The notes under the pieces: model-generated
Told to the model about the DNA's origin: nothing
Databases searched by the model: none
The model's input: the letters and a program-made list of their open reading frames with translations, nothing else
Translations under genes and position numbers: made by a program
IMG/VR virus record: IMGVR_UViG_2579778674_000006
Coordinates: 1-43,605 of that record
Length of the DNA: 43,605 nt
From: a virus
Lineage: Duplodnaviria > Heunggongvirae > Uroviricota > Caudoviricetes
Strand: one strand, 5' to 3'
Shown here: in pieces, positions 1-43,605 of the stretch
How the letters are laid out: each line of letters starts with the position of its first letter
Numbering within the stretch: position 1 is the stretch's first letter

Positions 1-32
1 CTTTACGCATAATTACCTCTCGCTTTTCTGCA

Positions 33-58
33 ATAAAAAAGGCGCCATTTCTGGCGCC
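33..58 (-). terminator. Rho-independent terminator downstream of J
   Basis: GGCGCCA-TTTC-TGGCGCC hairpin at 41-58 followed on the minus strand by a T-run (A6 at 35-40 on plus). Confidence 0.6.
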
Positions 59-2206
59 CTTATATGGGTTATAACAATTTCAACGAATACTGATGCCTGC
101 GGTGGCTTTCTTCATCACCACAACCAGCAAATCGCTGATACTTGCTGTGGGATACCAGTCATTTACCAGCCATGATGACACCGAAAACTCCAGCGTCATG
201 TGGCCGCGACCAGCTGGCATATCAATAACACCACTGTAAATCAGCGTATTATCCAGCGCGGTACGGTTATAAATTTCAGCACCGTTTTTCCGTACTATCA
301 GGCGGCATGACGAATAAATATCGTTATTCTCCCGCTCATGTTTAGCGCCGCTGAATGCCACCGCCGGAATAACAATCTGCCGGTCAAACGGCTGATCGTC
401 ATAAACCCTGACGGTGATGGTCCCTGATGGCCACCGTTCCGGTGCACGGGAGTCCCGGGGGAAAGCTTTGCCCACTGTTTTAACGAGATCGCCTTCAATC
501 TGGTTGGCGGACAATTTTCCCAGAACCCGACAGTTCTCGTTAATCGTGACGTTGTTGAGCGTCCCGGAGTTCGCATTCACGTTACCGCTGATATCGGCAT
601 TTTTCGCCGTCAGCCGCCCGTCCGGTGTCAGGGAAAATGCCGGAGGATTACCGCCGCTGGTAATGGTCGGAGCCGTCAGGCGTTTCAGGAACACGTCGTT
701 CATGAATATCTGATCGCCCTGACCAACAAACATCGGCTTTGTGTTGCCATTCGCAGGATTAATCATCGCAATCCGGTCAGCAGCCAGAAGCACCTGACTC
801 TGCATACCTGCTGGCGTATTCTCAATACCGGCTCCGATACCCGCAATATAAAGGCGTCCGTCCTTCATCTGCTGCAGTTTCACGGCCCACATGCTGTTCA
901 GGTTATTATTTGTATCAACCTGAACTTTCTGTATCTGCTGGATTGCCGCACTCTGGTCTTCCAGTTTTTTATTGACGGTCTGCGTGATTTCATTGCTGAC
1001 ATTCGTAATGGACGTCCTGATTTCAGCCAGGTCAGGCGCAAGCTGACCGTTATCAATCTGCGTCCACAGCTCCTGAGCCAGATGGGTTTTCCCTATCTCG
1101 CCTTTGAAAAAATCCAGGTAACCTTCCGCATCATCGCTCGCCCGACCGACGGCCTCCACGAATGCCGATTTGCCAACGGTGTTCACACTGCGGATATAAA
1201 AGTAATAATCATGGCCCGGTTTGATATTGATACTGGCGGCTATCCAGTACAGCCCCGTGCCAAGGTAGCGCGCTGTGGTTTCAACCTGCCTGATATCGGT
1301 AATCCGCTTTTCCGAAAACCAGAACTCAAACTGTACCGTCGGGTCATAAACGGCAAGATGCGGCGTGGCGGTTATCTGAAAATACCCCGGCGTCAGCTCA
1401 ATCCGCGACGGTGCTACCGGTGCGGCAATCCGGAACGATACCGACGCCGGATCGCCCTGCTGTCCCCACGCATTTACCGCCCGGACTGTCAGCCTGTAGT
1501 TCCCCAGCGCCAGTTGCGTGAAGCGGTATGCGGTTTCCGTCGTCCGGGCCGTGCTGACCAGCCGCTCACTGCCGTCATCCGCTGCCACGGTCAGGCGAAG
1601 CATAAAGCTCACCCCCTTCACCACCTTCGGCGTATCCCAGCGCGCCAGCACCTGATATTCCCCGCTGTCTGCGGTGACTTCGGCAGTCAGGTGCTGCACC
1701 GCTGGCGGCGTGACACCGTTCACCGTGCCGCTCTGGTCGCCGTCAAAGTGCGCCCCGTTATCCACGATGGCTTCTTTTTCCGGTACATGCTGCACGGCGG
1801 TGATGGCATACGTACCGTCATCGTTCTCACGGATACTCACACAGCGGAACAGGCGCTGGCGCAGCGTCGGCAGCTTCAGCCCCCACACGCTGTATTCGGC
1901 AACGCCGTCAGGAACACGGCTCACTTTCACCTTCACGCCGTCGGTGACGGACTGAACCTCCACGCTGACCGGACTCCCCTGCCCGTCAACCAGGCTTATC
2001 AGCGTGGTGCCGGAAGATGGCAGCGTGATTTCACGGTCGAGCGTCAGCGTCCGGGTCTGACTGTTCACCGCCAGCACGCGACCACCGGTGCTGATACCGG
2101 CATAGTCATCATCGCAGATTTCAATGACATCGCCCGGTACATGGCGAAGCCCTTCAGCACCCACGCTGAAATCCACGGTCTGCGTCTCCAGCAGTTCCGT
2201 TTTAAT

Positions 2207-2703
2207 CAGCCACAGCCCGGCGCGGTGTGCCTGCCCCCGGCTGGTACAGCCAAAGGCATCCATCTTCGTGACATTACGACCGTAACGGGCAATGGCCTGC
2301 GTATCTTCAACAAGCTCTGTCGCCGCGCGATGCGCTGTATGCCGGTATGGAACGGGCAGACGCTGACGTTCGTGCAGGACCGACCGTCGGATAAGGTGTG
2401 GGCCTATAACCGCAGTAATGTGGTGATGCCGGATGATGGCGCGCCGTTCCGCTACAGTTTCAGCGCCCTGAAAGACCGCCATAATGCCGTTGAGGTGAAC
2501 TGGATTGACCCGGATAACGGCTGGGAGACGGCGACAGAGCTTGTTGAAGATACGCAGGCCATTGCCCGTTACGGTCGTAATGTCACGAAGATGGATGCCT
2601 TTGGCTGTACCAGCCGGGGGCAGGCACACCGCGCCGGGCTGTGGCTGATTAAAACGGAACTGCTGGACAGCGTCTGCCCGTTCCATACCGGCATACAGCG
2701 CAT
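2207..2703. repeat. Inverted duplication inside J: plus-oriented copy of J codons (2327-2664) flanked by minus-oriented copies of its two ends (2207-2326 and 2665-2703)
   Basis: The peptide [45 protein letters not shown] is encoded on the minus strand at ~2207-2326 and again on the plus strand at 2528-2664; [13 protein letters not shown] is encoded on the plus strand at 2327-2365 and on the minus strand at 2665-2703. Confidence 0.85.
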
Positions 2704-2792
2704 CGCCGAGCAGAAATCACTGAGCACATCCCACGCCTTACGCTGCGTGGTCAGGTAGGCATTACAGGTGATGCGCGGCTCCGTGCCGCTAA

Positions 2793-2914
2793 AACCGTCC
2801 GGCACTGACTGGTCGCAGTACTGGCCGATGACATACAGCGCCCATTTATCCACAACCGTCCGGCACCGACTGATCGCAATGCTGGCCGATGACATACAGC
2901 GCCCATTTGTCCAC
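2793..2914. repeat. Imperfect 61-bp tandem duplication inside J
   Basis: Copy A 2793-2853 and copy B 2854-2914 differ at about 5 positions; 61 bp is not a multiple of 3, so the frame shifts. Confidence 0.9.
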
Positions 2915-2955
2915 ATCCGCCGCACCAAGACGTTTCCCCATGCCGTAGCGCGGAT

Positions 2956-2985
2956 GGGTCAGCATATCCGTGGGTCAGCATATCC
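2956..2985. repeat. Short tandem duplication inside J (gggtcagcatatcc twice, 16-bp period)
   Basis: gggtcagcatatcc at 2956-2969 and 2972-2985 separated by gt; shifts the J frame. Confidence 0.85.
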
Positions 2986-3830
2986 CACAGACACCAGGCC
3001 GGGTTGTTGCTGTATGCCGGCTTAAACGTTCCGTCCCAGATACCGCTGTATTGCCGCGTCTGCGGGTTATAGTTCGACGGCACCTGCAGAATGCGCCCAC
3101 GAAGATGATAATTACGGCTCACCTGCTGGCTGCCGAACTGCTCCGAGTCCACCTGCACGCCGACCAGTGCCGTGTTCGGGTAGCACTGTTTCACATCGAT
3201 GATTTCGGTGTATGACGACCAGAGCGTTTTGTTCTGCAGCTGGTCTGTGGTGCTGTCCGGCGTCATCCTGCGCATCCGTATATTGAACGGGCGCGGCGGC
3301 AGGTTACCCACCACCACCGAGGCCAGATACTGCGAGGTGGTTTTGCCCTTAATGGTGATGTCTTTTTCCGTCACCCAGCCACCATTACGCTGTATCTGAA
3401 CCAGCAGGCGGACTTCCGACGGATTCCGGTCCCCCTTTGAGGTGGTTTCCACCAGTGCCTGTACACCGAAGGTAAAGCGCAGACGGTCGATGTTTGCCGA
3501 CGTGATGGTCCGGGTGATCGGCGTGTCATATTTCACTTCCGTACCCAGCACCGTCTCGGAGCCGGAGGATTCAAATCCCTCCGGCGGTGACTGCTCCTGC
3601 TCACCGGCCCGGAACACCACCGTGACGCCGGATATATTGGTATTCCCCTCACAGTCCAGCACCGGCGTACTGTTCAGCAGCACGCTTTTTAATCCGTCCA
3701 CCGGACCTTCAACCGGCCCTTCGCTGATGGCATCGATCACACTCAGCAGCTGCGTGGACTTCAGGTTGTCCTTCGCTTCGCGCGGGGTATGCCCCTTACT
3801 GCTGCCTTTACCCATTCCTCACGCTCCATA

Positions 3831-3855
3831 AACGACAAAACCGCCCGCAGGCGGT
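3831..3855 (-). terminator. Intrinsic terminator-like hairpin between I and J
   Basis: Minus strand reads ACCGCC-TGCG-GGCGGT followed by TTTGTCGTTT; sits in the 59-bp gap between the I stop and the J start. Confidence 0.5.
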
Positions 3856-3874
3856 TTCACATAAACGTTTTTCA

Positions 3875-4522
3875 TCAGCGACCAATCACCACAACCTGAC
3901 CACCATCCCCTTCGTCTGCCGTGCTGATCTCCTGAGAGACCACCCGCGACCCCACGCGCATTTCACCGTACAGAACGGGCAGAACATTGCCCTGGGCAAC
4001 CATGTTATCCAGTGAGGAGAAATAGGTGTTCTGTTTGCCGTTATCTGTACTTGCTGCCGTGGGCGTCCTGGCTTTCGGTGCCAGCATCTGCGCCACTCCG
4101 CCCAGGATCATACTGGCCCCTGCCGCATACATGCCCGATACAGCCGCGGCACCCAGCCAGCCCACAGGGTTCCACCATGCCACCGCAATCAGCGCCGCCC
4201 CCAGCACCACCTGAAACACACCGCCACTTTTAGCTCCCGCCAGACGCGGCACGATGTGGATCACGGCACCATTTGCCAGCGGCTCATTAAGACGGGCAGA
4301 CAATTCGGTTTCACCTGCATCACGCCCGGCAATGCGTACCTGGTACCAGCCGTCGCTCAGTTTCTGACGAAATGCCGGGATCTGCATGGCCAGCGCCCGG
4401 ATGGCTTCGGACCCCGTTTTCACTCGAAGGTCGATGCGGCGGCCAAATCGTTGTAAATCCCCGTAAAGGCAGATGCGTGCCATGCCCGGTGACGCCAGAG
4501 GGAGTGTGTGCGTCGCTGCCAT
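3875..4522 (-). CDS. I: Tail assembly protein I
   Basis: 215-aa ORF, MAATHTLPLASPGMARICLYGDLQRFGRRIDLRVKTG..., matches lambda gpI as I recall it; follows K and precedes J. Confidence 0.9.
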   Translation of the reverse strand: MAATHTLPLASPGMARICLYGDLQRFGRRIDLRVKTGSEAIRALAMQIPAFRQKLSDGWYQVRIAGRDAGETELSARLNEPLANGAVIHIVPRLAGAKSGGVFQVVLGAALIAVAWWNPVGWLGAAAVSGMYAAGASMILGGVAQMLAPKARTPTAASTDNGKQNTYFSSLDNMVAQGNVLPVLYGEMRVGSRVVSQEISTADEGDGGQVVVIGR

Positions 4523-21665: not shown

Positions 21666-21740
<75 letters not shown>

Positions 21741-21743
21741 CAT

Positions 21744-21820
<77 letters not shown>

Positions 21821-21821
21821 A

Positions 21822-21898
21822 CTGGACCGCCACCGGGGACTCGAACCTCGCACACTCAACTTAAAGGGTTGACGCTCTTTCCTGATGAACTGGTGACG
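21822..21898 (-). tRNA. tRNA-like gene, anticodon UUU if the loop is read canonically (Lys?), with unusual C33
   Basis: 77-nt cloverleaf, acceptor CCGTCAC/GTGGCGG with one G-U pair, anticodon loop CCUUUAA, T-loop TTCGAGT, CCA end; one T-stem mismatch. Confidence 0.5.
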
Positions 21899-21899
21899 G

Positions 21900-21975
21900 T
21901 TGGTGGCCCTTGCTGGATTTGAACCAGCGACCTGGCGATTATGAGTCGCTCGCTCTCACCACTGAGCTAAAGGGC
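21900..21975 (-). tRNA. tRNA with CAU anticodon (Met or lysidine Ile2, ileX-like)
   Basis: 76-nt cloverleaf, perfect acceptor GGCCCTT/AAGGGCC, anticodon loop CUCAUAA, T-loop TTCAAAT, CCA end. Confidence 0.8.
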
Positions 21976-22093
21976 CGGGCGCAGGATAATAACGTTACGA
22001 AATCAATGTTGCAAGCATTCAAAAATCACCTGGTTAAAAATCACCCTTAGCTCCTCCACCAGCGCATTCACCATGTCTATCCGAGATAAGTGG

Positions 22094-25334: not shown

Positions 25335-25490
25335 TTACTCCTCAGGTTCGTAAGCTGTGAAGACAGTGACCTCCGTCTGGCCGGTTCGGATTCGTACCTC
25401 GCAGAGGTCTTTCCTCGTTACCAGTGCCGTCACAATGACGGTTAAACAGATGACGATCAGGGCGATTAACATCGCCTTTTGCTGCTTCAT
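25335..25490 (-). CDS. hok: Hok/Gef-family type I toxin; the in-frame upstream ORF to 25547 is a possible mok-like leader frame
   Basis: 51-aa product MKQQKAMLIALIVICLTVIVTALVTRKDLCEVRIRTGQTEVTVFTAYEPEE, near-identical to HokD/RelF as I recall it. Confidence 0.85.
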   Translation of the reverse strand: MKQQKAMLIALIVICLTVIVTALVTRKDLCEVRIRTGQTEVTVFTAYEPEE

Positions 25491-25743
25491 AGCCTGCTTC
25501 TCCTTGCCTTTCGGCACGTAAGAGGCTAACCTAGATTTGCCGTTCATAGATTGAGCCTCAGATTAATGTTAAGCGTCTTGCAGGACGCGTAATGTTAACT
25601 GGGGCTTTTCTCTATCTGCCTTTGGTGTTCATGCCTGAGGCAGATAGCCTCAAGCACCCGCAGCAATTCTACTTAAGTTAGATAAGCTTTTCTATGGTAT
25701 TCTCTCAGCGTCCCGTAAATACAGTCTCGGCTCATCATTTTTA

Positions 25744-27759: not shown

Positions 27760-28848
27760 TTACCCCCTGAAGCCCGGCGGAATTTCGTTATCCGGTTCAG
27801 AAATATGATTCACACAACGCTGGTTGTTCGTGCCGCTTACCGGGAGCAACCAGGGGTTCTCAAAATTCCGGTCCGGTCCAAAAAACGTCGTCGCTCGCTG
27901 AACAAATTCCGTTCCCGTTTTCCCGGTAGCCGCCAAGTATCTTGCGTAACGCCTCACGCCATCCAGCATGGCCTCTGGTGGCACCCCCTCGCGTAATCTG
28001 GCCTTCCAGGCACTGAAAGCGGATTTCTTCGGGTTTGCCCCAGCACGCAACGGGTACTCCCGCCAGACCTGTTCGAACACATCCGGATAATCCACTCGTC
28101 CCACAGACTGCCCGGTGTTTTCCGGGACTACCCGATCGGCTTCCCGCTGAATGGCGGAATCGGCTTCGGGCTGCTGCAGTTGGTGTGATTGCTCCGGCCT
28201 TGCGGTCATCACCTGCTGCACAGCGCCCGAATCGGCTTTCAGCGCATACGCTGAATCGGCTTCCGGTGTCGTGCCTGCTGGCTGACCAAGATTGACGGTC
28301 TGAACATCCCCTGCCTGGTTCGTGGCGTTTTTTACGCCATGGACCATAGTGTTTTGATCTTCTTGATCTGTATCTTTATCTGTATCTTTATCTGTATCTT
28401 TATCTGTCGTGACTCGTCGTGACATGTGCGTGACATTTCGTGACGCGCCGTGACAATCGCCATTTTGTTCCCGCTTTCTTTCCCTCTCTCGCTGCGCCCT
28501 CTTGCGCTCTGCAGGAGATTTTGCGGTTTGCGAAATATTGCCGTTGTCCTCTTTAAGCACCTGGCGTTTTTCCCATCCAGTGATTAAATCACCATCAAGT
28601 ACCCGCCCCTGCATCGTCTGCAAAATTGAATCAATTACCTCTTCTGTCACGTCGAGCGCACTTGCCAAATCTTCTGTCGTGACATCAATGTGACCTCGCG
28701 TGACATTTCGTGACGCGCTCACCAGGAGGTGGATATACACTGCCATCACTGTTGCAATTGGCTGCCCTGACACCCTGGCAATTGTTCGCCACTTAGGGTC
28801 ATTTGGCATGTCATGCCATAATCTGAGCCAGGCGTTAGCCATACTCAC
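27760..28848 (-). CDS. Putative replication initiation protein with internal iterons
   Basis: 362-aa ORF; central DKDTDKDTDKDTD repeat; two clusters of CGTGAC iterons inside the gene. Confidence 0.65.
   Translation of the reverse strand: MSMANAWLRLWHDMPNDPKWRTIARVSGQPIATVMAVYIHLLVSASRNVTRGHIDVTTEDLASALDVTEEVIDSILQTMQGRVLDGDLITGWEKRQVLKEDNGNISQTAKSPAERKRAQRERERKREQNGDCHGASRNVTHMSRRVTTDKDTDKDTDKDTDQEDQNTMVHGVKNATNQAGDVQTVNLGQPAGTTPEADSAYALKADSGAVQQVMTARPEQSHQLQQPEADSAIQREADRVVPENTGQSVGRVDYPDVFEQVWREYPLRAGANPKKSAFSAWKARLREGVPPEAMLDGVRRYARYLAATGKTGTEFVQRATTFFGPDRNFENPWLLPVSGTNNQRCVNHISEPDNEIPPGFRG
28408..28454. repeat. Iteron cluster 1: five CGTGAC repeats at 10-11 bp spacing, preceded by 12-bp tandem repeats (28367-28407)
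   Basis: CGTGAC at 28408, 28418, 28429, 28439, 28449. Confidence 0.75.
28646..28714. repeat. Iteron cluster 2: CGTGAC-type repeats with one inverted copy
   Basis: GTCACG at 28646; CGTGAC or TGTGAC at 28678, 28689, 28699, 28709; shares a ~21-bp exact stretch (cgtgacatttcgtgacgcgc) with cluster 1. Confidence 0.7.
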
Positions 28849-30924: not shown

Positions 30925-31490
30925 AGCTAACCAACGAAGCTAAGGTTGGTAATTAAGGAGTTCTCCACGGGTGAGGTGGAGTGCGTGCGCCGGACACGGG
31001 TGAGCATCCGGCACTGACAGTTTACTGAAAGGATATTTCCCTGAAAAGTCAGACCATAACGCGAAAGCGCACGGCGAGGTAGCTGGTTCATAGATAGCCT
31101 GTCGTTAAATTTTCGTCGACCGTGCGCTTCCGGTTGTGGCACTCCGCGAAATGGCGCGGCGGTAAGTATGGCGGGGTTATTCCTTCCCCGTTGAGGACAC
31201 CGGGTTGTCAGGTTGACCATACGCTTAAGTGACAACCCCGCTGCAACGCCCTCTGTTATCAATTTTCTGGTGACGTTTGGCGGTATCAGTTTTACTCCGT
31301 GACTGCTCTGCCGCCCTTTTTAAAGTGAATTTTGTGATGCGGTGAATGCGGCTAAGCGCACGCGGAACAGTTAAAACCAAAAACAGTGTTATGGGTGGAT
31401 TCTCTGTATCCGGCGTTAATTGTTAACTGGTTAACGTCACCTGGAGGCACCAGGCACCGCATCACAAAACTCATTGTTGAGGGCGCGATA
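30925..31490. other. ORF-free, GC-rich, self-complementary segment: candidate structured RNA or regulatory region
   Basis: No credible ORF on either strand; several mutually complementary segments (gccgga/tccggc, cgtgcgc/gcgcacg, ggagtgc/gcactcc, ggttgtca/tgacaacc). Confidence 0.4.
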
Positions 31491-34460: not shown

Positions 34461-34664
34461 ATGAGCAGCTTATTTTTAACCGAAGATGAATTGCTAATAT
34501 TAACGGGCTGCAAATATGCAAGCCACCAGCGAAAATGGTTAATGGAAAACGGGCTTCCGTTCTATACCAATCGTAGTGGCAAACCGATTGTCAGCCGGGA
34601 TCTATTTACCTGCAATAAAACTTTACCACCACGCGAGGTAGAGCCGAATTTTGGTGCGATCTGA
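34461..34664 (+). CDS. xis: Excisionase-like protein
   Basis: 67-aa ORF immediately upstream of and overlapping the integrase start. Confidence 0.6.
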   Translation: MSSLFLTEDELLILTGCKYASHQRKWLMENGLPFYTNRSGKPIVSRDLFTCNKTLPPREVEPNFGAI

Positions 34665-35689
34665 TGGGAAGACGAAGGAAAAATCCTGAACACGAAAAAT
34701 TACCTCCAAATGTATACCCAAATAAATATAGTTATGTATGGAAACCAACATCCAGAGAATCTGTCACACTAACCGCCATCAAGGATGGTTTAGCTGCTTT
34801 ATGGAAAAAGTATGAGGAAACTGTAAATAATCGCGATCGTGCAATGACATTCGGTCGCTTGTGGGAAAAATTCCTCGCCAGCGCCTATTACAGTGACCTT
34901 AGTCCAAGAACACAAAAAGATTATCTGCAACATCAAAAAAAGTTGCTTGCCGTATTCGGTAAGGTACCAGCGGATTCCATAAAACCAGAACACATCCGTC
35001 GATACATGGACAAAAGAGGGGAGCAGAGTAAAACGCAAGCCAACCATGAAAAAAGCAGTATGTCCCGTGTTTACAGTTGGGGGTATGAGCGAGGGTACGT
35101 GAAGGCTAACCCATGTGCAGGTGTAAGTAAATTCAAGGCCAAAAACCGCGAACGATATGTAACCGACAAAGAATACCAGGCAGTATTAAGCGTTGCACCT
35201 CTTCCTGTTTTTATCGCAATGGAAATTGCCTATCTGTGTGCAGCGAGGGTTTCCGATGTGTTATCGCTGAAATGGGAACAGATTGGAAACGACGGGATAT
35301 TCATCCAGCAAGGGAAAACCGGAAAAAAACAGATAAAAGCATGGAGTCCACGATTACAGGCAGCGATCGAAAAAGCAAAACAGTTACCAAAATCTGCCTA
35401 TGTGATCAGCAATCAATACGGCAACCGATATATGTACAAAGGCTTTAACGAAATGTGGGTAGATGCAAGAAATCGTGCTGGAAAAATTTCAGGTATTTTA
35501 ACCGACTTCACCTTTCATGATCTGAAGGCGAAAGGAATTTCAGACTATGAAGGAAGCAGCCGGGATAAGCAACTTTTCTCTGGTCACAAAACCGAAGGGC
35601 AAGTGCTAATCTATGACAGGAAGGTTAAAGTTTCACCAACACTTGATGTCCCGTTACCTGAAAATATTCCAAGAAAATATTCCAAGTAA
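34664..35689 (+). CDS. int: Tyrosine integrase
   Basis: 341-aa ORF with C-terminal catalytic-type motifs (FTFHDLKAKGIS ... LIYDRK); adjacent to the tRNA-Ser 3' end. Confidence 0.9.
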   Translation: MGRRRKNPEHEKLPPNVYPNKYSYVWKPTSRESVTLTAIKDGLAALWKKYEETVNNRDRAMTFGRLWEKFLASAYYSDLSPRTQKDYLQHQKKLLAVFGKVPADSIKPEHIRRYMDKRGEQSKTQANHEKSSMSRVYSWGYERGYVKANPCAGVSKFKAKNRERYVTDKEYQAVLSVAPLPVFIAMEIAYLCAARVSDVLSLKWEQIGNDGIFIQQGKTGKKQIKAWSPRLQAAIEKAKQLPKSAYVISNQYGNRYMYKGFNEMWVDARNRAGKISGILTDFTFHDLKAKGISDYEGSSRDKQLFSGHKTEGQVLIYDRKVKVSPTLDVPLPENIPRKYSK

Positions 35690-35741
35690 TTCCAAGTGTG
35701 ATTTTTGTCACTGACTTAATGATGTGTAAGTGATTGAATTT

Positions 35742-35831
35742 TGGCGGAGAGAGGGGGATTTGAACCCCCGGTGGAGTTGCCCCCACTCCGGTTTTCGAGA
35801 CCGGTCCGTTCAGCCGCTCCGGCATCTCTCC
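35742..35831 (-). tRNA. serU: tRNA-Ser (anticodon CGA), serU-like; prophage attachment site at its 3' end
   Basis: 90-nt class II tRNA GGAGAGATGCCGGAGCGGCTGAACGGACCGGTCTCGAAAACCGG...GGGGGTTCAAATCCCCCTCTCTCCGCCA. Confidence 0.9.
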
Positions 35832-35924
35832 GTTCAGATGGTTGCCATGATGCCAGGAAATTTGGCATTTTAACAGTCCCTGTCCGTGCAATTTTGTTCA
35901 AGTGACGAGTTTGCGAGCAAAACG

Positions 35925-36722
35925 ATGATTAAGTGGCCCTGGAAAGTACAAGAATCAGCACATCAAACTGCCCTTCCCTGGCAGGAAGCACTATCGATCC
36001 CCCTTTTAACGTGTCTGACGGAACAGGAACAAAGCAAATTAGTCACTCTTGCCGAACGTTTTTTACAGCAAAAGCGGCTTGTTCCTTTACAGGGCTTTGA
36101 ACTGGATTCATTAAGAAGCTGCCGGATAGCACTTCTATTTTGCCTACCCGTTCTGGAGTTAGGACTGGAATGGCTGGATGGTTTTCATGAAGTCTTAATT
36201 TATCCTGCGCCATTTGTGGTCGATGATGAATGGGAAGACGATATCGGTCTGGTGCATAACCAACGTATTGTTCAGTCAGGTCAGAGCTGGCAGCAAGGGC
36301 CTATCGTTTTGAACTGGTTGGATATACAAGATTCTTTTGATGCTTCTGGTTTTAACCTGATTATTCATGAAGTCGCTCATAAGCTGGACACCCGTAACGG
36401 CGATCGCGCCAGCGGAGTTCCCTTTATTCCGTTGCGTGAGGTTGCTGGCTGGGAACACGATCTTCATGCTGCAATGAACAACATTCAGGAAGAAATCGAA
36501 TTGGTTGGCGAGAATGCGGCGAGCATTGATGCTTATGCTGCCAGTGATCCTGCTGAATGTTTTGCCGTACTTTCTGAATATTTCTTTAGCGCCCCAGAAC
36601 TTTTTGCTCCTCGTTTCCCTTCATTGTGGCAACGTTTCTGCCAATTTTATCAACAAGATCCTTTGCAGAGACTGCATCGCACTAATGATACAGACTCGTT
36701 TTCGGCGACGAATGTTCATTAA
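35925..36722 (+). CDS. mtfA: MtfA (Mlc titration factor A, zinc peptidase)
   Basis: Starts [28 protein letters not shown] inside ORF 35886..36722; HEVAH zinc-binding motif; chromosomal position next to asnT. Confidence 0.9.
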
Positions 36723-36775
36723 TTAACAACCTTGCAGATTAATTAACCAATTGAAATGACTTATGAAATTTAGTG

Positions 36776-36804
36776 TTGACAGACAAGGTACCGCTAAGTA
36801 ATAT
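36776..36804 (+). promoter_or_regulatory. Sigma70-type promoter of tRNA-Asn
   Basis: TTGACA (36776-36781), 17-bp spacer, TAATAT (36799-36804), about 18 bp before the tRNA 5' end. Confidence 0.65.
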
Positions 36805-36822
36805 GCGCCCCGTTCACACGAT

Positions 36823-36898
36823 TCCTCTGTAGTTCAGTCGGTAGAACGGCGGACTGTTAATCCGTATGTCACTGGTTCGAGTCCAGTCAGAGGAGCCA
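36823..36898 (+). tRNA. asnT: tRNA-Asn (anticodon GUU)
   Basis: 76 nt TCCTCTGTAGTTCAGTCGGTAGAACGGCGGACTGTTAATCCGTATGTCACTGGTTCGAGTCCAGTCAGAGGAGCCA. Confidence 0.95.
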
Positions 36899-37019: not shown

Positions 37020-37211
37020 CTATGAACGCCATCACCATTTTCCCCTCGATTATAAAACTTGAGTTATTCAGTAGTCTCCCCTCTTACAACTCACACTCAA
37101 AACTGCCTAACGAAAAGTTATTAATTTTCAATCATATTGCTATCAGGATTTACATTTTTTCGCTGTGCTAGAAAGGGCGCATTTATGTTAGCTCGTTCAG
37201 GGAAGGTAAGC

Positions 37212-43549
<6,338 letters not shown>

Positions 43550-43605
43550 GGTGATGCTGCCAACTTACTGATTTAGTGTATGATGGTGTTTTTGAGGTGC
43601 TCCAG
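43550..43605. mobile_element. IS1 terminus (partial, continues past the window end)
   Basis: GGTGATGCTGCCAACTTACTGATTTAGTGTATGATGGTGTTTTTGAGGTGCTCCAG matches the IS1 terminal inverted repeat and adjacent sequence as I recall it. Confidence 0.8.

Follow-up and report, generated by a model that had tools for sequence, protein, structure and literature searches.

The window analysed here is the entire 43,605-bp contig AYKD01000035.1 of the Escherichia coli FCH1 draft genome (GCA_000511545.1). It contains a lambdoid prophage at the serU/mtfA site, whose tail-tip gene J lies on the minus strand next to the left end of the contig. As assembled, J was split into two open reading frames on this strand, one of 354 aa (2751-3815) and one of 868 aa (80-2686), and the recorded gene calls, which place both fragments on this one contig only, divided the gene likewise. 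The Pfam matches on record for the J fragments were FNIII-A_GpJ, Phage-tail_3, Ig_J, Phage_Tail_Tip and Ig_GpJ_C. The features of the region as deposited were as follows:

80..3815, minus strand: gene J as assembled (tail-tip / host-specificity gene, lambda gpJ family), two ORFs with Pfam matches
1082..2758, plus strand: spurious ORF of 558 aa, antisense to J until 2326, then true J codons through the flipped piece, stop at 2758
2187-2325: left arm of inverted repeat I1, 139 nt, partner 2529-2667; corresponds to the overlap of pieces P1 and P2 (see below)
2668-2706: right arm of inverted repeat I2, 39 nt, partner 2327-2365; corresponds to the overlap of pieces P2 and P3

Repeat analysis of the window revealed that both inverted repeats were perfect, with 100% identity between the arms of I1 (2187-2325 and 2529-2667, 139 nt) and between those of I2 (2327-2365 and 2668-2706, 39 nt). 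The J codons that occupied the plus strand, ending in LWLIKTELL, were found at 2327-2665. Further along, a 61-nt tandem repeat (2793-2853 and 2854-2914) showed five differences between its copies, all of them transitions. It was followed by a 16-nt tandem repeat (2954-2969 and 2970-2985), in which the first base differed (A/G) and the 15-nt core was exact. The first 16-mer was ATGGGTCAGCATATCC, and the second was GTGGGTCAGCATATCC. Other repeats of a comparable kind were absent from the whole 43.6-kb window, and chance falls far short of explaining exact repeats of such lengths (139, 39 and 61 nt).

The original prediction had described most of this layout, and the present coordinates refine it. 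The inverted-duplication arrangement A-B-inv(BCD)-D-E is present in the sequence, with arms at 2187-2325 and 2668-2706 in place of the 2207-2326 and 2665-2703 first given, a shift of a few to 20 nt. The 61-bp tandem duplication at 2793-2914, expected to carry about five differences, carried exactly five. The 16-bp duplication was also there, starting at 2954 and not at 2956, and the 558-aa plus-strand ORF at 1082..2758 was confirmed as spurious. The break in the reading frame was present in the deposited sequence as well: the 16-nt and the 61-nt duplication each shifted the minus-strand J frame by +1 (mod 3), and the flipped piece interrupted it.

The closest complete-genome relative for comparison was gpJ of E. 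coli E7 (3,480 nt, 1159 aa). Against this gene, the window was collinear with 100% identity over 1-2325, matched on the opposite strand over 2327-2667, and was collinear again from 2668 onward. As a collinear reference, hereafter X, we used locus L005 (CP165290.1), with X position 1 set to window position 1; it was taken from a set of ten loci with intact J that had been gathered by look-up of the identical tape-measure protein. On X, the J region was tiled by five pieces and one orphan base:

1-2325, plus strand: P1, local allele X, collinear; X 1-2325, 0 mismatches to L005 and E7
2326, no strand: orphan base C at the first junction, unexplained by flanking templates or examined alleles
2327-2667, plus strand: P2, 341-nt J fragment, reversed; X 2187-2527, 7 mismatches, all inside X 2339-2468
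2668-2853, plus strand: P3, local allele X, ending with 61-mer copy 1 (2793-2853); X 2489-2674, 0 mismatches
2854-2969, plus strand: P4, foreign allele, with 61-mer copy 2 (2854-2914) at its start and the first 16-mer (2954-2969) at its end; X 2614-2729, 6 mismatches
2970-4000, plus strand: P5, local allele X, starting with the second 16-mer; X 2714-3744, 1 mismatch

The alignment to an intact lambda-family J gene that the original prediction had proposed thus returned five overlapping pieces, with 2327-2667 flipped and the rest collinear. Neighbouring pieces overlapped in X coordinates by 139, 39, 61 and 16 nt, and each pair stood unmerged, end to end. The four overlaps and the orphan base together made up 256 nt, which was the exact excess of the window over X. 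When these 256 nt, comprising the redundancy of the flipped piece and one copy of each tandem repeat, were removed, an uninterrupted J of 1159 aa was obtained, the same length as E7 gpJ. The local-allele pieces left two holes, at X 2326-2488 and X 2675-2713, which were covered by the foreign pieces only. The join at 2667|2668 was blunt, with 0 nt of microhomology. At the join 2325|2327 there was likewise no microhomology, and the single base between the templates (C, 2326) was explained by neither of them; its reading as a synonymous variant within the flipped piece was supported by neither strain 205 nor E7.

The pieces differed markedly in their relation to X. P1, P3 and P5 together had 1 mismatch in 3,542 nt, compared with 13 in 457 nt for P2 and P4 (Fisher p = 6e-12), and the pieces alternated between alleles across all four joins. 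When flipped, P2 matched the gpJ gene of E. coli strain 205, which is collinear, at 341/341 positions, and it showed 99.4-99.7% identity to many others. P4 was identical (116/116) to numerous natural J alleles, with 616 records at 99% or above. The first copy of the 61-mer was the local allele (0/61 differences to L001 and L005), and the second copy with its flank matched other alleles at 116 of 116 positions. Because P2 and P4 exactly match natural J alleles, the five differences between the 61-mer copies and the A/G difference between the 16-mers are allelic states, not divergence after duplication. The best natural match to a collinear query with the second 61-mer copy placed in local flanks was 98.5%, which fits a copy foreign to the local allele.

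A single donor allele for both foreign pieces was sought. Strain 205, which matched P2 over 341/341 nt, had 6 mismatches to P4; strains 120899 and SA186, which matched P4 over 116/116 nt, had 6-11 mismatches to P2. Among the alleles compared, none was exact for both pieces, so the donor would be either an unseen mosaic or two donors, that is, further J copies. Several J copies per genome are typical of E. coli: the median number of J places per complete genome was 3 for the 341-nt piece and 5 for a 4-kb query.

The arrangement was also looked for in other genomes. The whole structure was reproduced in 0 of 5,426 complete E. coli genomes. A query spanning both tandem repeats (2740-3010, 271 nt) found 10,162 matching places in 4,430 of these 5,426 genomes, and among the top-ranked hits, which were inspected, the best covered 194 nt of the record, corresponding to a single copy of each repeat. 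The string across the first inversion junction had no match in genome, viral or metagenome contigs, and that across the second had none in genome contigs; the 61-nt junction string was absent from metagenome contigs, and the 16-nt junction string from viral contigs. These absences indicate uniqueness, and an artefact and a private mutation are not separated thereby.

FCH1 is a faecal isolate of a pig farmer (de Been et al. 2014, PMC4270446). According to that report, its reads were 90-bp paired HiSeq 2000 reads from 500-bp inserts; they were assembled with SOAPdenovo v1.05 at k of 21-63, the assembly with the fewest scaffolds being chosen, and 162 scaffolds resulted (PMC4270446). The same authors noted that near-identical, multi-copy blaTEM was wrongly assembled in some of their other strains (PMC4270446). 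Both ends of the contig were located at repeats: on the left the contig took in 10 nt of lom and ended 80 nt beyond the stop of J, and on the right it ended in an IS1-like end. The last 58 nt (43548-43605) did not belong to yeeJ and were 100% identical to the end of an IS1-like (IS1A) element found in thousands of plasmids. Because these 58 nt are an IS1-like end and not a continuation of yeeJ, the contig stops at a copy of IS1 that either sits within yeeJ or borders it. The look-up of the tape-measure protein returned long contigs of other strains only. FCP1, a pig isolate from the same farm, was considered as an independent view of the prophage; its clonality with FCH1 is not stated in PMC4270446 and the two assemblies are not of one size (4.73 vs 5.06 Mb), and the comparison was set aside.

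Taken with the provenance of the contig, the tiling makes it highly probable that the scrambled J region is an artefact of the draft assembly and not a biological rearrangement. This reading draws directly on the overlapping tiling, the alternation of alleles, the clean ORF obtained after removal of the excess, and the known origin and assembly method of the contig. Very probably there are two or more lambdoid prophages in FCH1 whose J genes are similar but not identical, the second J copy being one that we infer. The short-read assembler would have failed to resolve the stretches in which the J copies differ, and the path of the local allele would have been broken. The two breaks (X 2326-2488 and X 2675-2713) would then have been bridged with small fragments of the other J copy or copies, presumably during scaffolding or gap closing. 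The bridging fragments would have extended beyond the breaks on both sides, with the overlaps written end to end and left unmerged, and the larger fragment would have been inserted backwards. Such a course would leave a flipped piece whose two ends recur in inverted form on either side of it (139 and 39 nt), together with apparent tandem duplications (61 and 16 nt), the copies of which would differ at allelic sites only. It was also considered whether the overlaps were untrimmed k-mer overlaps, but the four lengths differ (139, 39, 61 and 16 nt) and correspond to no single k, and two of the overlaps contain mismatches.

The assembler's authors themselves list improper handling of variant contigs and false contig relationships among its weaknesses, and report that the old GapCloser chose wrongly where repeats were highly similar (Luo et al. 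2012, PMC3626529); v1.05 was without the new gap-closure module (PMC3626529). These weaknesses of SOAPdenovo v1 scaffolding and GapCloser concern the same assembler family and version as was used for FCH1. The paper (PMC3626529) gives no example of the exact five-piece pattern, and the step responsible in FCH1 is again one that we infer. False duplications that arise when variant contigs are set next to each other are a known class of assembly error (Kelley & Salzberg 2010, PMC2864568). In such false duplications (PMC2864568; Ko et al. 2022, PMC9516828), two variants of one region are written adjacently, as in FCH1 J, and the result looks like a recent duplication, with the copies differing where the variants do, again as in FCH1 J; the cause is that the assembler fails to merge similar sequence linked by read pairs (PMC2864568, PMC9516828). 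Unlike haplotype false duplications, the variants in FCH1 J would be paralogous prophage genes in a haploid bacterium. The pieces of FCH1 J are also very small (116-341 nt) and one of them is reversed, which is unlike the known cases.

An inversion with flanking inverted duplications is the pattern expected from two template switches, and the A-B-inv(BCD)-D-E layout fits this pattern. FoSTeS/MMBIR inversions with inverted duplications have the same layout as FCH1 J, and the structure could be read as a real complex rearrangement of this type, in which replication or repair switched templates between two co-resident J genes, one switch being onto the opposite strand. Such an event would leave the tail-tip gene dead, with an inversion bordered by inverted duplications and with two short duplications besides. 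The foreign-allele pieces could in principle derive from a co-resident prophage, and the deposited sequence is the only direct data. Nevertheless, we consider such a rearrangement unlikely. At least four switches within 800 bp would be needed, strictly alternating between two loci. Unlike FoSTeS/MMBIR, the inversion joins lack microhomology (0 nt; one untemplated base), the inverted piece and its surroundings belong to different alleles, and two more foreign-allele overlap joins adjoin the inversion. The copied segments were not from the local template (7 mismatches in P2 and 6 in P4), J and the tail operon were otherwise without decay, and the structure was never seen among ~10,000 other J copies, as judged from the top-ranked hits. 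In addition, the gene is multi-copy, the short-read draft contig ends 2-3 kb away from the site, and the assembler is documented to mishandle such cases. The more specific proposal of inter-prophage, microhomology-independent, multi-step template switching between two E. coli J genes is slightly more doubtful still. If true, it would show a bacterial tail-tip gene inactivated by a complex rearrangement between loci that is independent of microhomology.

A stepwise history is conceivable too, in which an ancestral mosaic J was hit separately by an inversion-duplication and by slips of 61 nt and 16 nt, and mutation or gene conversion later drove the copies apart. Slippage commonly produces tandem duplications, and differences between the repeat copies are present. 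But the differences between the copies are natural allele states, which random drift would not yield, and with 1 mismatch in 3.5 kb elsewhere there was no time for 8% divergence within a 61-nt copy. It is also improbable that three independent events, each breaking the frame, would all fall within 800 bp of a gene that is perfect elsewhere, and this history is very hard to credit. We give equally little weight to a mixed template, that is, DNA from two strains, or from a sub-population whose J differs, merged by the assembler. It would likewise put two alleles into the read set, but a second prophage in the same genome is simpler, since E. coli genomes typically have several J copies; mixed signals were not seen elsewhere in the window, and the outcome would still be an artefact. 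A decaying prophage pseudogene was rejected. Outside the four joins J had no lesions, with 1 of 3,542 nt differing from an intact allele and no indel, and the tail genes beside it (tape-measure, M, L, K and I) were intact and full length.

With an assembly artefact as the preferred reading, several parts of the original prediction change their meaning. The statement that the prophage cannot make a functional tail tip probably describes the assembly and not the strain, because the joins are unmerged overlaps of alternating alleles in a SOAPdenovo v1.05 draft; once the extra nucleotides are removed, J encodes 1159 aa. The suggested recombination between non-identical J alleles was right in that two alleles are involved, and its biological origin is unsupported. 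The idea of old, diverged tandem duplications found no support, the copy differences being allelic: copy 1 is of the local type, and natural alleles match copy 2 and its flank at 116/116 positions. The warning that a chimeric assembly had to be excluded was well founded.

The repaired FCH1 J is an ordinary member of the lambda gpJ family, with the same domains and a length of 1159 aa, and nothing unusual compared with lambda gpJ is left after removal of the 256 nt. The neighbours of lambda gpJ are also kept in FCH1, with the tape measure, M, L, K and I upstream and lom downstream. The J gene is normal and the biology of this prophage is ordinary. As deposited, the FCH1 contig presents J as fragments of 354 aa and 868 aa plus a spurious antisense ORF of 558 aa, and drafts of this kind would mislead the scoring of prophage intactness, J alleles, host range and "structural variants". 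A diagnostic that can be reused is whether pieces overlap on the reference and their alleles alternate.

Several relatives with the same tape-measure protein (L004, L007, L009, L011 and L012) were found to carry insertions of the IS66 or IS21 family in the tail region. The tail-completion gene lay on one side of these insertions and the major tail or chaperone genes on the other, and J was intact in these relatives, at 1159 aa.

Several other features of the contig were recorded. In the region 34664-36898, an integrase ORF (34664-35689) abutted tRNA-Ser(cga) (35742-35831), and mtfA and tRNA-Asn came next; the counterpart of this integrase in E. coli SBF22 is annotated as frameshifted. A cluster of four tRNA genes of the prophage was found on the minus strand at 21667-21976, namely Gly(tcc), Thr(tgt), Lys(ttt) and Met(cat). 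Two small RNAs of the prophage, at 25485-25659 and 31265-31316, were assigned to the sok antitoxin RNA (RF01794, 111.7 bits) and DicF (RF00039, 76.7 bits), respectively, and DicF lay within a region matching the ydfA-ydfC/dicB annotation of SBF22. Short tandem repeats at 28361-28455, consisting of a 12-nt unit repeated 3.9 times and then a 10-nt unit repeated 4.9 times, were situated inside a minus-strand ORF (27760-28848); they look like iterons in a replication-organiser-type gene. The gene yeeJ (37137-43571), which encodes an inverse-autotransporter adhesin, was divided into three ORFs (37137-38801, 38753-40786 and 41511-43571). Comparison with the intact yeeJ of SBF22 (L015) attributed the split to the loss of 1 nt near 38713 and the gain of 1 nt near 41429; yeeJ may truly be a pseudogene, or the split may be one more error of this draft assembly.
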